A stretch of DNA of 64,000 bases from NCBI GenBank assembly GCA_951406725.2, contig OX597816.1, positions 180,296,001 through 180,360,000 of the forward strand, read 5' to 3'. Each line of letters starts with the position of its first letter. Positions within the stretch are counted from its first letter, which is position 1. Positions 16,597-60,253 of this stretch are shown one piece after another. Source of the stretch: Octopus vulgaris. Lineage: Eukaryota. The translations under genes were made by a program, and so were the position numbers. The notes beneath the pieces were generated by a model that saw only the letters and a program-made list of their open reading frames with translations, was not told the DNA's origin and made no database searches.

Positions 16597-17808
<1,212 letters not shown>

Positions 17809-27600: not shown

Positions 27601-28128
27601 TATATATATATATATCTCTTATTATAAAAGGCAGATTTTATCTGCCTCCCTTTGGGAGTTATACAAATCTACAATATAGGATTTCTTCAATTACAATTTA
27701 CCTAGCATTTTTAAGAGTACAATGCATCGCGTCATGCCAGGTCCAGTTTTTAAAATTTAAACTCCAATTAAGCAAAATTTACAGAAAACTCACATTCTGG
27801 TGTGTGTGTCAAATGCTTTTCTTAGTCTGGTTTACACCACACGCAAACGCACACACACACAGTGGGCAACGAATAAAATGAAAGTAAATTCACTTACTGT
27901 AGTGAGTGATTCTTTCACTCTGCCTCCCACTTCCGCTTTCCACACATAGACACGCAAATATATAAATAAAATTGTAAGCTAACGTGCATGTGTGTGAGTG
28001 TGTGTGTGTGTGTGTGTGTGCGCGTGTGTGTGTGTGTGTGAGGGTGTGTGTGTGTGTGCGTGTGCATGAGTGTGTGACAGGAAAGTTTTTTACGACGAAT
28101 ATAACACCTATATCCAAGTAGCAGAAAG

Positions 28129-28394
28129 ATAAGACAGTAAGGTGTGATTTGAGGGAGATTTGGCTGCTATTTCTACCATGTCTAGCTGCCATGTAGGGGT
28201 CTCCCTCATAGGTTCATACATACATATATACATAGATAAGACAGTAAGGTGTGATTTGGGGCAAATTTGGCTGCTATTTCTACCAGGTCTAGCTACCATG
28301 TAAGAGGTCCCCCTCATTGGCTCATATATATATACATACATAAGACAGTAAGGTGTGATTTGAGGGAGATTTGGCTGCTGTTTCTACCAGGTCT
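28129..28394 (+). repeat. ~105-bp x3 sub-repeat (also in units 2 and 3), derived from a dispersed repeat
   Basis: ataagacagtaaggtgtgatttg at 28129, 28236 and 28340; related motif also near 6685, 22455(-) and 63740(-). Confidence 0.9.
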
Positions 28395-28744
28395 GTTAGG
28401 CCTTCGCATGTAAACTCAAGCTTTCTCATGCCTTGAACATAAGACCAAAGCAGAGAATGTATTCTTTTATTCTTCTGCTTTTTCCAGCCATTGGTCTGTG
28501 GCCATGCTGGGGCAATGCCTTGAAGAATTGTAGTTTAATGAATCAACTCCAGTTTTATTTTTATAAGCATTGTACTTATTCTATCTGTTTCCTTTGTCAA
28601 ACCACTAGGTAAACAAACCAACATTCGTTGTCAAGCAGTGGTGGAGGACAATCACAAGCACAGACATGCACACACACACACATACATGCATACACATATA
28701 CACACATACATACATACATATATATATATGTGTGTATATATATA

Positions 28745-29002
28745 TTGCAGCGTGGAAGGTGTTTCTAAGCCATTTAAGAAACACACAAAAACCCTTACAT
28801 TCACTTCAACATTTAAATTTAATTTGCCAAAATATTTTCGTCGCTTTGAGACCGCGACCTGTTCACTGACAAAAATATCATGCTAACAGGTCGTGGTCTC
28901 AAAGCGACGAAAATATTTTGACAAATTAAATTTAAATGTTGAAGTGAATCTAACGTTTTTGTGTGTTTCTTAAATGGCTTATAAACACCTTCAACGCTGC
29001 AA
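28745..29002. mobile_element. Penelope-like inverted pLTR fragment (arms ~118 bp, 21-nt spacer), copy 1
   Basis: 28745-28863 is the reverse complement of 28885-29002; contains a hammerhead motif; further copies at 31074-31332 and 33421-33680. Confidence 0.75.
28823..28873 (-). ncRNA. Minimal type I hammerhead ribozyme motif, G3-C8 core variant (copy 1)
   Basis: UUUGUCA-GUGAACA-G-GUCGC-ggucucaaa-GCGAC-GAAA-AUAU-UU-UGGCAAA: stem I of 7 bp, stem II of 5 bp, palindromic stem III. Confidence 0.7.
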
Positions 29003-29164
29003 CTGTTTTCGTTCCAGCACACGATCTCAGATCAAGTCACTTGCTATGCAAGTACATCTCTGTAACTATATATATATTTATATATATATATATATGTATA
29101 TTGGTAAAAACAGTAAGATAACAAAAGAAAGAAAGAGACCTCAATATTATGTAAATAGAGGAAA

Positions 29165-29559
29165 TCTTTATATATAAAAGTGAGGTTGTGTGTCTGTCTC
29201 CTACGATTTAGATTCCTAACTACTCCCACATTTTGCGGTGCAGTTTAACCAAAACCGGGTATCTTATAGTCGTGATTCATATCGAGACCGTCTGGGTATT
29301 AGCGCGCGTCTACGATGAGTCTACGATTTAAAAAAAAATTTACCATCAATTTTTCCCATTTTTAATCCATTTTTGACATATATAAGGGAAGTAACTCTCT
29401 AAAATTTATTATTAAATCTCAGAACGTAAAAAGCTACAGTAACACCCCTCCCCCTTTGTGGTTAGCCATATTGAGATGGCTATTATACTTTACATCTCTA
29501 AAAATGCTTATATAATTATTTCCCTTACAAACCCGAGCAACGCCGGGCGATACTGCTAG
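29165..29559 (+). mobile_element. Non-autonomous Helitron C (395 bp), copy 1
   Basis: a|TCtttatatataaaag 5' end; 3' hairpin cccgagcaacgccggg plus cgatactgCTAG. Confidence 0.9.
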
Positions 29560-31151
29560 TCATATCTATAAAAGGAAGGATGTTTATGTGTATACGTGAT
29601 TGTAATTTATGCACGTCCACAAATTAGCAGACATGTCACTCCAATTTTAGGAGGATATTCTCCAACACCCTATCTGGGTTTTCTCAACTTATTTTTTTCC
29701 CCGAGGCACCCGTGGTTAGCGTAAATATCTATTTTCAGACATAGCTTTTAGCCACAAAAAATATCAGCCTTGATATTTACTTCAGTGAAAATCGTGTTAA
29801 TCTACAAATTTAACAACATTTTTTCCATTCATTTCTGTTTATGAACATGTATGCGTGCACAAAACATGCAATAGGTGTACGTACGTACGTGTATGTATGT
29901 GTGTTCGTGTCTGTTGCCTATAGATATTTATATTATATTATATATCTCTTATTATAAAAAGCAGATTTTATCTGCCTCCCTTTGTCAGTTATGGAAATCT
30001 ACAATATAGGATTTCTTCAATTACAATTTACCTAGCATTTTTAAGAGTAGAATGCATCGGGTCATGCCAGGTCCAGTTTTTAAAATTTAAACTCCAATTA
30101 AGCAAAATTTACAGAAAACTCACATTCTGGTGTGTATGTCAAATGCTTTTCTTAATGTGGTTTACACCACACGAAAAGGCACACACACAGTGTGCAACGA
30201 ATAAAATGAAACTAATTCACTGTGTGTGTGTTGACAGGTAGACAATAGAATGCAATGGCGATGGCGATGGCGATGTAATATTTGTTTCTGTCTATCACGC
30301 TGATAGATACATGAGTAAAATGTATGGCAAGCTAAGGGATAAGAGTGAGTGAAAATGTTCTTGGAAGAGAGTAAATAGCGAGAGTGATTTGAGGAAGACT
30401 TTACATTAAATAACCGTAGTGGCTTGTATATATATATATATACATACATAAGACAGTAAGGTGTGATTTGAGGGAGATTTGGCTGCTATTTCTACCATGT
30501 CTAGCTGCCATGTAGGGGTCTCCTTCATAGGCTCATACATACATATATACATAGATAAGACAGTAAGGTGTGATTTGGGGGAAATTTGGCTGCTATTTCT
30601 ACCAGGTCTAGCTACCATGTAAAGGTCCCCCTCATTGGCTCATATATATATACATACATAAGACAGTAAGGTGTGATTTGAGGGAGATTTGGCTGCTGTT
30701 TCTACCAGGTCTGTTAGGCCTTCTCATGTAAACTCAAGCTTTCTCATGCCTTGAACATAAGACCAAAGCAGAGAATGTATTCTTTTATTCTGCTTTTCCA
30801 GCCATTGGTCTGTGGCCATGCTGGGGCAATGCCTTGAAGAATTGTAGTTTACTGAATCTACTCCAGTTTTATTTTTGTAAGCATTGTACTTATTCTATCT
30901 GTTTCCTTTGTCAAACCACTAGGTGACAGGGATGTAAACAAACCAACATTCGTTGTCAAGCAGTGGTGGAGGACAATCACAAGCACAGACACGCACACAC
31001 ACACACATACATGCATACACATATACACACATACATACATACATACATATATATATATGTGTGTATATATATATTGCAGCGTGGAAGGTGTTTGTAAGCC
31101 ATTTAAGAAACACACAAAAACCGTTAGATTCACTTCAACATTTAAATTTAA

Positions 31152-31202
31152 TTTGCCAAAATATTTTCGTCGCTTTGAGACCGCGACCTGTTCACTGACA
31201 AA
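31152..31202 (-). ncRNA. Hammerhead motif, G3-C8 variant (copy 2)
   Basis: Same 51-nt sequence as copy 1. Confidence 0.7.
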
Positions 31203-31404
31203 AATATCGTGCTAACAGGTCGCGGTCTCACAAGCGACGAAAATATTTTGACAAATTAAATTTAAATGTTGAAGTGAATCTAACGTTTTTGTGTGTTTCT
31301 TAAATGGCTTATAAACACCTTCAACGCTGCAACTGTTTTCGTTCCAGCACACGATCTCAGATCAAGTCACTTGCTATGCAAGTACATCTCTGTAACTATA
31401 TATA

Positions 31405-31447
<43 letters not shown>

Positions 31448-31510
31448 TGGTAAAAACAGTAAGATAACAAAAGAAAGAAAGAGACCTCAATATTATGTAA
31501 ATAGAGGAAA

Positions 31511-31905
31511 TCTTTATATATAAAAGTGAGGTTGTGTGTCTGTCTCCTACGATTTAGATTCCTAACTACTCCCACATTTTGCGGTGCAGTTTAACCAAAA
31601 CCGGGTATCTTATAGTCGTGATTCATATCGAGACCGTCTGGGTATTAGCGCGCGTCTACGATGAGTCTACGATTTAAAAAAAAATTTACCATCAATTTTT
31701 CCCATTTTTAATCCATTTTTGACATATATAAGGGAAGTAACTCTCTAAAATTTATTATTAAATCTCAGAACGTAAAAAGCTACAGTAACACCCCTCCCCC
31801 TTTGTGGTTAGCCATATTGAGATGGCTATTATACTTTACATCTCTAAAAATGCTTATATAATTATTTCCCTTACAAACCCGAGCAACGCCGGGCGATACT
31901 GCTAG
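31511..31905 (+). mobile_element. Non-autonomous Helitron C, copy 2
   Basis: Same termini, 395 bp. Confidence 0.9.
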
Positions 31906-33498
31906 TCATATCTATAAAAGGAAGGATGTTTATGTGTATACGTGATTGTAATTTATGCACGTCCACAAATTAGCAGACATGTCACTCCAATTTTAGGAGG
32001 ATATTCTCCAACACCCTATCTGGGTTTTCTCAACTTATTTTTTTCCCCGAGGCACCCGTGGTTAGCGTAAATATCTATTTTCAGACATAGCTTTTAGCCA
32101 CAAAAAATATCAGCCTTGATATTTACTTCAGTGAAAATCGTGTTAATCTACAAATTTAACAACATTTTTTCCATTCATTTCTGTTTATGAACATGTATGC
32201 GTGCACAAAACATGCAATAGGTGTACGTACGTACGTGTATGTATGTGTGTTCGTGTCTGTTGCCTATAGATATTTATATTATATTATATATCTCTTATTA
32301 TAAAAAGCAGATTTTATCTGCCTCCCTTTGTCAGTTATGGAAATCTACAATATAGGATTTCTTCAATTACAATTTACCTAGCATTTTTAAGAGTAGAATG
32401 CATCGGGTCATGCCAGGTCCAGTTTTTAAAATTTAAACTCCAATTAAGCAAACTTTTACAGAAAACTCACATTCTGGTGTGTATGTCAAATGCTTTTCTT
32501 AATGTGGTTTACACCACACGAAAAGGCACACACACAGTGTGCAACGAATAAAATGAAACTAATTCACTGTGTGTGTGTTGACAGGTAGACAATAGAATGC
32601 AATGGCGATGGCGATGGCGATGTAATATTTGTTTCTGTCTATCACGCTGATAGATACATGAGTAAAATGTATGGCAAGCTAAGGGATAAGAGTGAGTGAA
32701 AATGTTCTTGGAAGAGAGTAAATAGCGAGAGTGATTTGAGGAAGACTTTACATTAAATAACCGTAGTGGCTTGTATATATATATATATACATACATAAGA
32801 CAGTAAGGTGTGATTTGAGGGAGATTTGGCTGCTATTTCTACCATGTCTAGCTGCCATGTAGGGGTCTCCTTCATAGGCTCATACATACATATATACATA
32901 GATAAGACAGTAAGGTGTGATTTGGGGGAAATTTGGCTGCTATTTCTACAAGGTCTAGCTACCATGTAGAGGTCCCCCTCATTGGCTCATATATATATAC
33001 ATACATAAGACAGTAAGGTGTGATTTGAGGGAGATTTGGCTGCTGTTTCTACCAGGTCTGTTAGGCCTTCTCATGTAAACTCAAGCTTTCTCATGCCTTG
33101 AACATAAGACCAAAGCAGAGAATGTATTCTTTTATTCTGCTTTTCCAGCCATTGGTCTGTGGCCATGCTGGGGCAATGCCTTGAAGAATTGTAGTTTACT
33201 GAATCTACTCCAGTTTTATTTTTGTAAGCATTGTACTTATTCTATCTGTTTCCTTTGTCAAACCACTAGGTGACAGGGATGTAAACAAACCAACATTCGT
33301 TGTCAAGCAGTGGTGGAGGACAATCACAAGCACAGACACGCACACACACACACATACATGCATACACATATACACACATACATACATACATACATATATA
33401 TATATGTGTGTATATATATATTGCAGCGTGGAAGGTGTTTGTAAGCCATTTAAAAAACACACAAAAACCGTTAGATTCACTTCAACATTTAAATTTAA

Positions 33499-33549
33499 TT
33501 TGCCAAAATATTTTCGTCGCTTTGAGACCGCGACCTGTTCACTGACAAA
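33499..33549 (-). ncRNA. Hammerhead motif, G3-C8 variant (copy 3)
   Basis: Same 51-nt sequence as copy 1. Confidence 0.7.
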
Positions 33550-33752
33550 AATATCGTGCTAACAGGTCGCGGTCTCACAAGCGACGAAAATATTTTGACA
33601 AATTAAATTTAAATGTTGAAGTGAATCTAACGTTTTTTGTGTGTTTCTTAAATGGCTTATAAACACCTTCAACGCTGCAATTGTTTTCGTTCCAGCACAC
33701 GATCTCAGATCAAGTCACTTGCTATGCAAGTACATCTCTGTAACTATATATA

Positions 33753-33795
<43 letters not shown>

Positions 33796-33858
33796 TGGTA
33801 AAAACAGTAAGATAACAAAAGAAAGAAAGAGACCTCAATATTATGTAAATAGAAGAAA

Positions 33859-53620: not shown

Positions 53621-54434
53621 TGGCCACTTGCTCTCTCAATTTTCATCTACTTTGCTTTTCATGCTAGTTAACATTTGATACAAATAATGCTGACAGCTCC
53701 TTTTTTCCTTAATACACTGCTATAACTGTGTTGTTATAGTGACATAAGATTTTTGTGTTTAGTATTAAAATACTTCCATAATATACATATATCGTATTGT
53801 GATGGTGTTGTTATATCATTGCCTGTGTTAATAAAATAATATTGGTGTAAGAAGTGACACAAAGTATGCATAAAATTTAGGATTAGACATATTTAGTAAA
53901 GAACTTCTTATTAATTAACTTGATATAGTCTAGGACAAGAGTGCTTATAGAAGATCTATATCCCAACTATGAGATTAGCTCTCAATAACAGTTCAGTGTA
54001 AGACCTGTAGAGAATCATTACTTCCGACTCTTTCTGGAGGTATGGCAAGGAGCCTAATCCTGCTGTCACATAAATGACCTTCCAACAGAAACAATCAGGG
54101 TATGACCACAGTCTATAAGAAATTCACTTAGCCATAATCTTTATGCTCTCCAATGCCGTTGACTGTTCACCAATACATAAAGCTGTTCTTGAAAAGGAAG
54201 GCATAAAAAAAATCATCAAATTTGTCCAAACATCCCATATACATCCTAGTGTTTCTGAAAATTTTAAAACTGCCAGAATGTACTGCGACCAGTCAAAAAT
54301 TTAGGACAACTCATATGCCACCTCCCTATGTATAAAACCGAATCACTTCAGAGTCTAACTTTTAAAAGAAAATGACAGAAAGAGGTGATGCGTTGATATA
54401 TATATATATATATAATAAAGTCAGCAACTGGGTA

Positions 54435-54486
54435 AGAGTCACTGATGAGGATTAATCAAATTTGAAATCATCAATGGTCTGGCTCT
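54435..54486 (+). ncRNA. Type I hammerhead ribozyme motif with canonical core
   Basis: AGAGUCA-CUGAUGA-GGAUU-aauca-AAUUU-GAAA-UCAUcaAUGG-UC-UGGCUCU; predicted GUC cleavage after 54479. Confidence 0.8.
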
Positions 54487-54667
54487 GTCTTGCTTTTTGT
54501 AGGGAACTTGTCTCCTTTGTCAGTCTTTAGATAAGTGCTTGCCCATGGCTAAAAGTTGTTTTGACACTTACTTCTAGCAATGCTGGTGCTGAGTAGTACC
54601 TTTAATCACAGTAGTGACGACTATACTTGTACCTTGTAAAAAGTCACCTTAATAATTTACATATATA

Positions 54668-55629
54668 TTAGGAGTCCAACCCATGCTAGCATGGAAAGTG
54701 GACGCTAAACGATGATGATGAAGATGATTAGGTCATCCCATAAATAATGCAGTTTTTTTCAATTGCATGGACTAAAAGTCAGAGGGGGACAGGATAAGCT
54801 GCCTGTATCAAAGCAGGTAGTAATTTTGCATTATTCTTAGTGCAACTTTTGAAGAGTGCAGTTTGATTTTAACAGTTGTTTTTTCAAATTGGGTCAATGA
54901 GTTCCTCACAAACTTTCTGAGTTTAATTGCACACACATGTCTCATGAATGAACTGTTTTTGGACTGGTGATGAGAATAGTGACTGGTGATGAGAAATGGG
55001 TTCTCTATAAAAATGTCAAGTGCCGAAGACAGTGGATAGGGAAAGTAGAAACACTGGCACCCCAGGCTAAAGAAGGTCTTCACGCACGTAATGTGTTGTT
55101 ATCTGTTTGGTGGGATATGAAAGGTTTAGTCCCCATTGAACTTTTAAACTGAAACCAAATGATATCAAAGGAGATCTACTGTGAGCAGCTTGGGTGGCTT
55201 AAGTCAGTGCTTGAAGAAAAATGACCATCGTTGGTTTCTAGACAGAGGGTGTTCTTCCATCAGGACAATGCTCAGCCACATACAGCAAGGATGACATTCC
55301 AGAGACTGGAGCAGTTTGAGTGGGAAATGATGCCCCACCCACCATATTCGCTGGACATTGCCCCATCTGATTATCATTTATTCTGCAGTCTTCAAAATCA
55401 TTTGGACAGAGAAAATATGAATTCTGTAGAGGTCAAAACAGTACTGGAGGAGTATTTTCCATCACAAACAAGTGAATTTTGGAAGAGGGGCCTTTCAAGT
55501 CAACCAGGTAGATGGAAGAACATAGTAGAAAATGAAGGAGAGTATATTTCAGATTTTAAAAAAAACATATCTTAGTTTTGAAAAACAAAGAAAGTATAAA
55601 AGAAACGCATTATTTATGGGATGACCCAA
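54668..55629 (+). mobile_element. Internally deleted mariner (DD34D) element
   Basis: TIRs ttaggtcatcccataaataatgc / gcattatttatgggatgacccaa with TA flanks; transposase motifs inside. Confidence 0.95.
54960..55575 (+). pseudogene. Mariner transposase catalytic domain, disrupted
   Basis: RIVTGDEKWV, WWDMKG, HQDNAQPH, HPPYSLDIAPSDYHLF; in-frame stops; N-terminal HTH missing. Confidence 0.93.
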
Positions 55630-60144: not shown

Positions 60145-60253
60145 GCTACCAAACTTCATAGATTCAAAGTGCATTCATATGGTAGCCCAACTTTCTGTGA
60201 CCATTGCGGCTCGCTACTCTATGGGCTGATTCATCAAGGCTTCAAATGTGATG
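60145..60253 (+). CDS. PRKCA: Internal coding exon of a conventional (Ca2+/DAG-dependent) protein kinase C, C1B domain (PKC alpha/beta/gamma; Aplysia Apl I-like)
   Basis: Polypyrimidine tract plus ctag| acceptor and G|gtaagt donor; phase 0 to phase 1. Translation [36 protein letters not shown] closely matches PKC-alpha [32 protein letters not shown]. Not in the ORF track in this frame. The symbol indicates the family; an invertebrate gene would be co-orthologous to PRKCA/B/G. Confidence 0.95.

Follow-up and report, generated by a model that had tools for sequence, protein, structure and literature searches.

The locus and its host gene

We analyzed a stretch of 64,000 nucleotides of the Octopus vulgaris genome, called here the window, which carries a hammerhead ribozyme motif within a repeat copy in an intron of a conventional PKC gene. 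The relevant features, in window positions, are the following:

54396-54413, no strand assigned: (TA)n run that borders the insertion on its 5' side; many copies of the family lie in a like context
54421-54660, plus strand: 5'-truncated single repeat copy, 240 bp, covering unit positions 1-252 of ~339
54421-54434, plus strand: 5' strand of the extended stem I, pairing with about 54489-54503 according to predicted folds and the differences from the family
54435-54486, plus strand: type I hammerhead, predicted to cleave 3' of C54479 (54479/54480)
54435-54441, plus strand: 5' strand of stem I, partner 54480-54486; 7 bp, with a single G-U that is common across the family
54442-54448, plus strand: core C3-A9, CUGAUGA, intact
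54449-54463, plus strand: stem-loop II, 5 bp including two G-U, loop of 5 nt
54464-54479, plus strand: G12-A15.1, stem III and C17, with GAAA at 54464-54467 and GUC at 54477-54479
60145-60253, plus strand: exon 4 (C1B domain) of the conventional PKC gene; Pfam C1_1, closest to PKC beta

The host gene is represented by five in-frame exons on the plus strand, of which the C1B exon is the fourth. The four further exons were found on the same strand in 200 kb of neighbouring sequence, and their in-frame join gives the N-terminus of a conventional PKC. The hammerhead lies in the sense strand of intron 3, which is 95,066 bp long, and its cut site is 5,665 nt away from the 3' splice site of this intron. 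Hence, the first-pass annotation was right to place the motif on the sense strand of a PKC intron, 5.7 kb upstream of the C1B exon.

Other repeats are found in the gene and in the window. Intron 1 contains two broken copies of a Penelope RT-endonuclease in antisense (G000:C3:180190379-180191941 and 180200270-180201730, minus strand), and intron 2 contains three more fragments of the 339-bp unit described below, all lacking the hammerhead (G000:C3:180227180-180227240 and 180242181-180242910). A 116-aa frame located 570 bp downstream of the repeat copy (55225-55572, plus strand) has no transposase match in Pfam, and carries motifs that we take to be those of a mariner-type transposase. Rows of tandem repeats recur at 28129, 30432, and 32779 in the region of about 28100-33800, with identical peptides spaced by 2346-2347 bp. 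This is a tandem duplication of ~2.35 kb, either genuine or an artefact of the assembly. Finally, a (TA)n array of 1.18 kb occupies positions 16623-17805.

Identification of the hammerhead motif

The motif has the elements of a type I hammerhead, i.e., C3-A9, G12-A14, A15.1-U16.1, H17, three helices, and an open helix I. The exception is the pair 10.1-11.1, expected to be Watson-Crick and usually G-C, which is a G-U in the window copy. All core nucleotides (CUGAUGA, GAAA, and GUC) and the 7-bp stem I initially reported at 54435-54486 were confirmed, as was the participation of G-U pairs in stems II (two) and III (one). In stem-loop II, the pairs 10.1-11.1 and 10.2-11.2 are G-C in the family and have become G-U by C>T changes at 54463 and 54462, respectively. 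Stem III (54467-54478) has 4 bp, one of them G-U, and a loop of 4 nt.

A strict type I descriptor identified this site only, both in the window and in the surrounding 264 kb, and no site in 100 dinucleotide shuffles of the window. It superseded a loose pattern restricted to the core, whose 11 matches in the window are at chance level (9.67 expected). The Rfam covariance score, which had been proposed as a check of the motif, did not back it: the scan returned no hammerhead family at the gathering score, nor at E<=10 on positions 54000-55000. Five weak Rfam matches to snoRNAs were dismissed as chance. Our covariance model R1 gives 72 bits to the window copy by construction, and hence this score is no evidence. 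The hammerhead is nevertheless a real feature of the sequence.

The hammerhead is part of an old repeat family

A DNA search of the genome from which the window derives gave 101 candidates, and all 40 that were scored match the repeat; querying with the full unit gave 1036. An exact pattern of 26 places, comprising the core and stem II, had 38 matches, against none for the reversed control. Relatives with an intact core number at least 38. The unit of the family is 339 bp long, has 40% GC, and contains no long ORF in any of the six frames. The other copies are mostly 75-86% similar, with a best value of 90% over 110 bp, which indicates that the family is old.

Of the 51 non-redundant loci, 30 exceed one unit in length. 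The units are arranged head-to-tail, up to a maximum of ~2.1 units, with one hammerhead per unit. An inverted piece is present at the 5' end in 17 of the 51 loci, and in 3 of 20 further loci. The 5' ends are scattered and the 3' ends are concentrated in two ranges, picked after inspection of the data: unit positions 245-258 (32 of 71 loci) and 195-212 (16 of 71 loci). A (TA)n or (AAT)n stretch comes after most of them. The family thus shows the traits of Penelope-type insertion, i.e., an AT-rich target, fixed internal 3' ends, and variable, often inverted, 5' ends. It also has the size, the GC content, and the single hammerhead per unit of non-LTR retrozymes, and, at the family level, their head-to-tail tandems.

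In the family, stem III has the palindromic sequence ATCATCGATGAT, the triplet is AUC, and stem I extends for ~15 bp further past a small internal loop. Another subfamily, with A10.1-U11.1, combines the triplet AUA with different palindromes in stem III (ATCAGCGCTGAT and its variants), e.g., at L056:1702-1753 and L039:1580-1631. Among the 38 exact matches, the pair 10.1-11.1 is A-U in 25, G-C in 9, and G-U in 4.

We used 114 aligned pieces to study the variation of the family. The core deviates from the majority at 28 of 570 non-CpG sites, compared with 1877 of 14617 elsewhere in the unit, a figure that includes differences between subfamilies. The 11 core residues and H17 are intact in 29 of the 53 copies spanning the motif, a proportion favoured by the use of hammerhead-containing queries in the search for copies. 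Hence, an intact core is unremarkable in this family. Among 50 of the 54 spanning copies (the four with indels were excluded), 86.0% of the stem cells are paired, versus 83.2% in shuffles, and none of 500 shuffles was as high. Two-sided cells number 26, a value matched in 1 of 500 shuffles, while pairs with a two-sided change number only 5, which is not more than in shuffles (327 of 500), and the relatives are not independent. The replacement of G10.1-C11.1 by A-U in 15 of the 50 rows probably reflects a single event in one subfamily. Judging from these alignments, the 339-bp ribozyme family appears to have been under constraint formerly, and the window copy carries no sign of it.

The genome also contains hammerheads of other families: L116:6174-6236 (minus strand), L123:7147-7212 (minus strand), L217 (C2, about 94931500, minus strand), and L204, L205, and L213. 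One occupies the middle of an inverted repeat of 420 bp that adjoins a young Penelope copy, two have a short palindromic stem III, and one, which is minimal, has an older Penelope subfamily nearby. At L074:7066-7127, a degenerate match resembling a hammerhead lacks an intact GAAA.

The copy in the PKC intron is truncated and diverged

Homology to the family starts at 54421, directly after the (TA)n run, and ends near 54660, at the major fixed 3' end of the family. A short TA run follows at 54662-54668. The copy is a single fragment of 252 columns, or 0.74 unit. It is ~85% identical to the family majority, and the nearest other copy is 86% identical over 189 bp. We found no second hammerhead of the 339-bp family within 264 kb, and hence the locus does not carry two consecutive hammerhead units in this range, the arrangement by which Li et al. 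2026 recognize active copies.

There are four derived changes in the hammerhead: C>T at 54462, C>T at 54463, G>A at 54473, and A>G at 54477. All four proved to be minority letters when compared with paralogous contigs from four DNA runs. Three of the changes turned a Watson-Crick pair into G-U, one of these being G10.1-C11.1. The G>A change disrupts the 12-nt palindrome of the family stem III, and A>G at 54477 created GUC from the triplet AUC, replacing a U-A pair by U-G. With 25 substitutions in the 252 columns of the copy, the four changes in the ribozyme correspond to about the rate of the whole, and the stems have diverged as much as the remainder. In addition, the truncation removed the outer part of the extended stem I, and substitutions in its 3' strand weaken this extension.

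Comparison with the family also clarified how the motif decayed. The first-pass annotation called it near-intact, which applies to the core only. Its ancestral stem II, GGATT/AATCC, agrees with the family. The stem III palindrome that it proposed, ACCATCGATGGT, had to be replaced by that of the family given above: A10/U pairs at this position are the majority in the family, and among the copies listed an ACC start occurs in L037 only. Finally, decay by C>T accounts for the G-U pairs of stem II (54462 and 54463) and not for that of stem III, because the G of GUC was derived from AUC by A>G at 54477.

Contigs from DNA runs with three other organism labels span the unique flank and the element. 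These organisms differ by ~1-2% over both, which is too close for constraint to be read from them. Read depths suggest that positions 54473 and 54477 carry identical letters in organism B. For organism F, the DNA run gave no cover of 54238-54407 at 85% likeness and was excluded from the evidence. Four runs that we guessed to be RNA, in the form of assembled contigs, gave paralogous pieces and one contig of the flank, none of which crosses the motif, and are uninformative on expression and cleavage.

Predicted folding of the window copy

When positions 54425-54500 were folded freely, the minimum-energy structure differed from the hammerhead (z of -1.16). The 52-nt hammerhead fold has a predicted energy of -4.1 kcal/mol, which ranks 10th of 27 among the core-intact copies without indels. 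When the extended stem I is included, the window copy ranks 36th of 54; these 54 copies were retained from 77 extracted, after excluding 23 with indels or a changed core start. In four context lengths, the hammerhead fold lies 9.7-10.7 kcal/mol above the ensemble; these nearest-neighbour energies take no account of proteins or tertiary contacts, and the best copies are themselves 3-5 kcal/mol above the ensemble. In these models, the window copy thus has a middling to poor predicted fold compared with its relatives.

Hammerheads with a short palindromic stem III act as dimers (PMC4209133). The predicted duplex between two stems III amounts to -5.2 kcal/mol in the window copy, compared with -15.5 kcal/mol for the intact palindrome. 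The pair G10.1-C11.1, changed here, is described as highly conserved (PMC4209133). In the literature searched, and in the portions of it available to us, only indirect papers touch upon changes of this pair, and none measures them. The GUC triplet of a viroid hammerhead was cleaved better than AUC during transcription (PMC1636495).

Comparison with known hammerhead elements

Non-LTR retrozymes have been described in metazoans such as corals (220-240 bp), mussels (350-390 bp), and axolotl (Cervera and de la Peña 2020, PMC7229834), and also by Li, Clavereau and Pollet (2026, 10.64898/2026.07.22.740005). The octopus family resembles them in having a type I hammerhead in a non-coding unit of low GC (150-450 bp and less than ~45-50% GC in the known cases), prone to form tandems, with autonomous Penelope-like elements in the same genome and frequent solo or intronic copies. 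It differs from them in being old, in having AUC and AUA triplets and an A10.1-U11.1 subfamily, and in being known here from DNA, as fragments and arrays of up to ~2.1 units. In the literature searched, as far as its accessible parts extend, we found no paper on retrozymes in octopus, and supplements may list such genomes.

The palindromic stem III, which favours cleavage as a dimer, is shared with the hammerheads of Penelope pLTRs (PMC4209133) and of Poseidon of Anolis (PMC11167929). So are the insertion at AT-rich sites, the partial tandems, and the presence of two fixed 3' ends separated by ~45-50 nt (PMC4209133; PMC11167929). Unlike Penelope pLTRs, the 339-bp unit has no ORF inside or linked to it. 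The hammerheads described for metazoan pLTRs are usually minimal, whereas those of the family have a stem III of 4 bp, a stem I of 7 bp with an extension, and no bulge after A9.

The domesticated ribozymes of amniotes, RECK (PMC6155905) and the HDV-like CPEB3 (PMC10919898), are similar to the window copy in being solo motifs placed in sense orientation within a long intron. According to these sources, they have few copies, are strongly conserved, and their cleavage was demonstrated, whereas the PKC copy is one of many decaying copies and has weakened stems.

The hammerhead is probably the relic of a retrozyme

The hammerhead of the window is probably an inert relic of a non-coding retrozyme of ~339 bp that was mobilized by Penelope enzymes. 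The family itself is likely a non-LTR retrozyme of this type, which fits its partial tandems, its inverted 5' pieces, and its two fixed 3' ends at AT-rich sites. The assignment to retrozymes draws on the head-to-tail units devoid of ORFs, on their size and low GC, and on a hammerhead of type I. Non-LTR retrozymes are thought to be mobilized by the enzymes of Penelope (PMC7229834; 10.64898/2026.07.22.740005), and biochemical work on a Penelope-like element demonstrated AT-rich targets and two internal sites at which reverse transcription begins (PMC11167929). RT + GIY-YIG frames abound in the octopus genome, and many have 781 aa. The preservation of every catalytic residue and of the 7-bp stem I, together with the GUC triplet, is the counterpoint to this reading.

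We propose the following scenario. The multimeric RNA of a master element would have cut itself at each hammerhead, probably aided by the pairing of two palindromic stems III. A Penelope RT/GIY-YIG protein would then have copied the resulting monomers or circles into DNA from two fixed start sites. Penelope-like enzymes likely inserted the copy at an AT-rich spot of the PKC intron, after which it would have decayed neutrally. As a lone copy that folds weakly in our models, it is predicted to cleave too slowly to matter before the polymerase reaches exon 4.

Could the copy instead be the inert relic of a pLTR of an extinct autonomous Penelope-like element, rather than of an independent retrozyme? 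Most Penelope insertions are 5'-truncated and retain a single terminal repeat, and pLTRs are the source of retrozymes (10.64898/2026.07.22.740005). Fragments of the unit, or resembling it, were found in inverted orientation immediately 5' of truncated Penelope ORFs at L114:5464-5620, L138:2752-2988, and L171:334-475, and L051 has a Penelope fragment immediately 3' of a unit copy. Against this, the units directly adjoin each other, with no ORF in between, in 30 of the 51 loci, and in the sampled Penelope subfamilies the repeat did not flank an RT + GIY-YIG ORF in register. We found no unit in the position of a pLTR in 30 GIY-YIG loci, 20 widened loci, 48-50 loci of two subfamilies, and 20 downstream extensions. 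In all 20 Penelope loci that were extended downstream, the 339-bp unit is absent from the sense strand of the extension, and three of these loci show a different, minimal hammerhead. Diverged fragments of the unit occur near Penelope once in the 30 GIY-YIG loci and once in the 48-50 loci of two subfamilies that had been met beside unit copies. Their density, 2 in ~250 kb of Penelope loci, is no higher than the 4 in 264 kb around PKC. For this reason, the inverted fragments beside Penelope ORFs are probably explained by shared AT-rich targets, and template switching between both RNAs may also have contributed. A match of 26% in tblastn beside L022, L052, and L133 corresponded to a proline-rich stretch and was discarded. 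The 4-bp stem III and the extended stem I are likewise unlike the minimal hammerheads of metazoan pLTRs (PMC4209133). Since only some Penelope subfamilies were sampled, an extinct parent retains some chance. We consider a pLTR origin unlikely.

Taken jointly, the two variants make it very likely that the copy is an inert relic. This refines the proposal of an inert Penelope relic made by the first-pass annotation: inertness and the link to Penelope stand, and the element becomes a non-coding, retrozyme-like repeat of ~339 bp in place of the terminal repeat of the Penelope ORFs tested. One Penelope-like family of the genome is young, and its numerous open RT + GIY-YIG frames of 781 aa are ~95% alike (e.g., L116:2663-5005). 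Its cysteine motif suggests that it may be Neptune-like.

If it is not fully inert, the copy might undergo slow monomeric cleavage in a minor fraction of the PKC pre-mRNAs, by accident and with no selected effect. The intact core and stem I and the GUC triplet are in line with this, and some hammerheads of invertebrate retrozymes are active as monomers (PMC7229834). The G-U pairs in stem II (two, at its base) and in stem III (one) and the worn extension of stem I speak against it, as do the minimum-energy fold, which is not a hammerhead, and the loss of the highly conserved G10.1-C11.1 (PMC4209133). We regard such residual cleavage as improbable.

A role as a regulator kept by the host is the least probable reading. 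A polymerase needs a few minutes to transcribe 5.7 kb, and a regulatory role would require cleavage within that time. It is very improbable that the nascent PKC transcript is cut 5.7 kb before the C1B exon so as to tune splicing or output in the manner proposed for RECK and CPEB3, in spite of the sense orientation in a genuine intron, the intact core, the derived GUC, the insertion common to three other organism labels in the DNA runs, and the precedents of intronic ribozymes (PMC6155905; PMC10919898): chance suffices to explain an intact core (29 of 53 copies, and ~0.27 when computed from the divergence of the copy itself), each of the four derived changes weakens the pairing of the monomer or of the dimer, and the organisms sharing the insertion, only ~1-2% different, are too close to reveal constraint. 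The specific version in which a sense-strand retrozyme hammerhead gained GUC, cuts as a monomer before exon 4, and was kept as a lineage-specific brake on PKC output seems equally remote. If true, this would be one of the rare cases of a domesticated ribozyme, here in a signalling gene of an invertebrate, and a counterpart of the intronic ribozymes of RECK and CPEB3. The earlier suggestion that the motif could cleave the pre-mRNA and affect splicing thus finds no support, given stems as diverged as the rest, a middle-to-poor predicted fold, and no dimer partner nearby.

Significance of the copy and its family

In Xenopus, ~43% of the retrozyme copies are intronic, and cleavage in vitro was absent for 8 of the 9 genomic dimers that were tested (10.64898/2026.07.22.740005). 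A silent intronic copy is thus the usual case. The find adds another old retrozyme-like family to this genome and, as it stands, matters little. The family is a further example of Penelope-type ends on a retrozyme. It also provides a natural series of variants, with A10.1-U11.1 versus G-C, the triplets AUC, AUA, and GUC, and three stem III palindromes, which is of minor value. It also carries a warning: since over half of its decaying copies retain an intact core, the presence of such a core in an intronic hammerhead is no sign of function.
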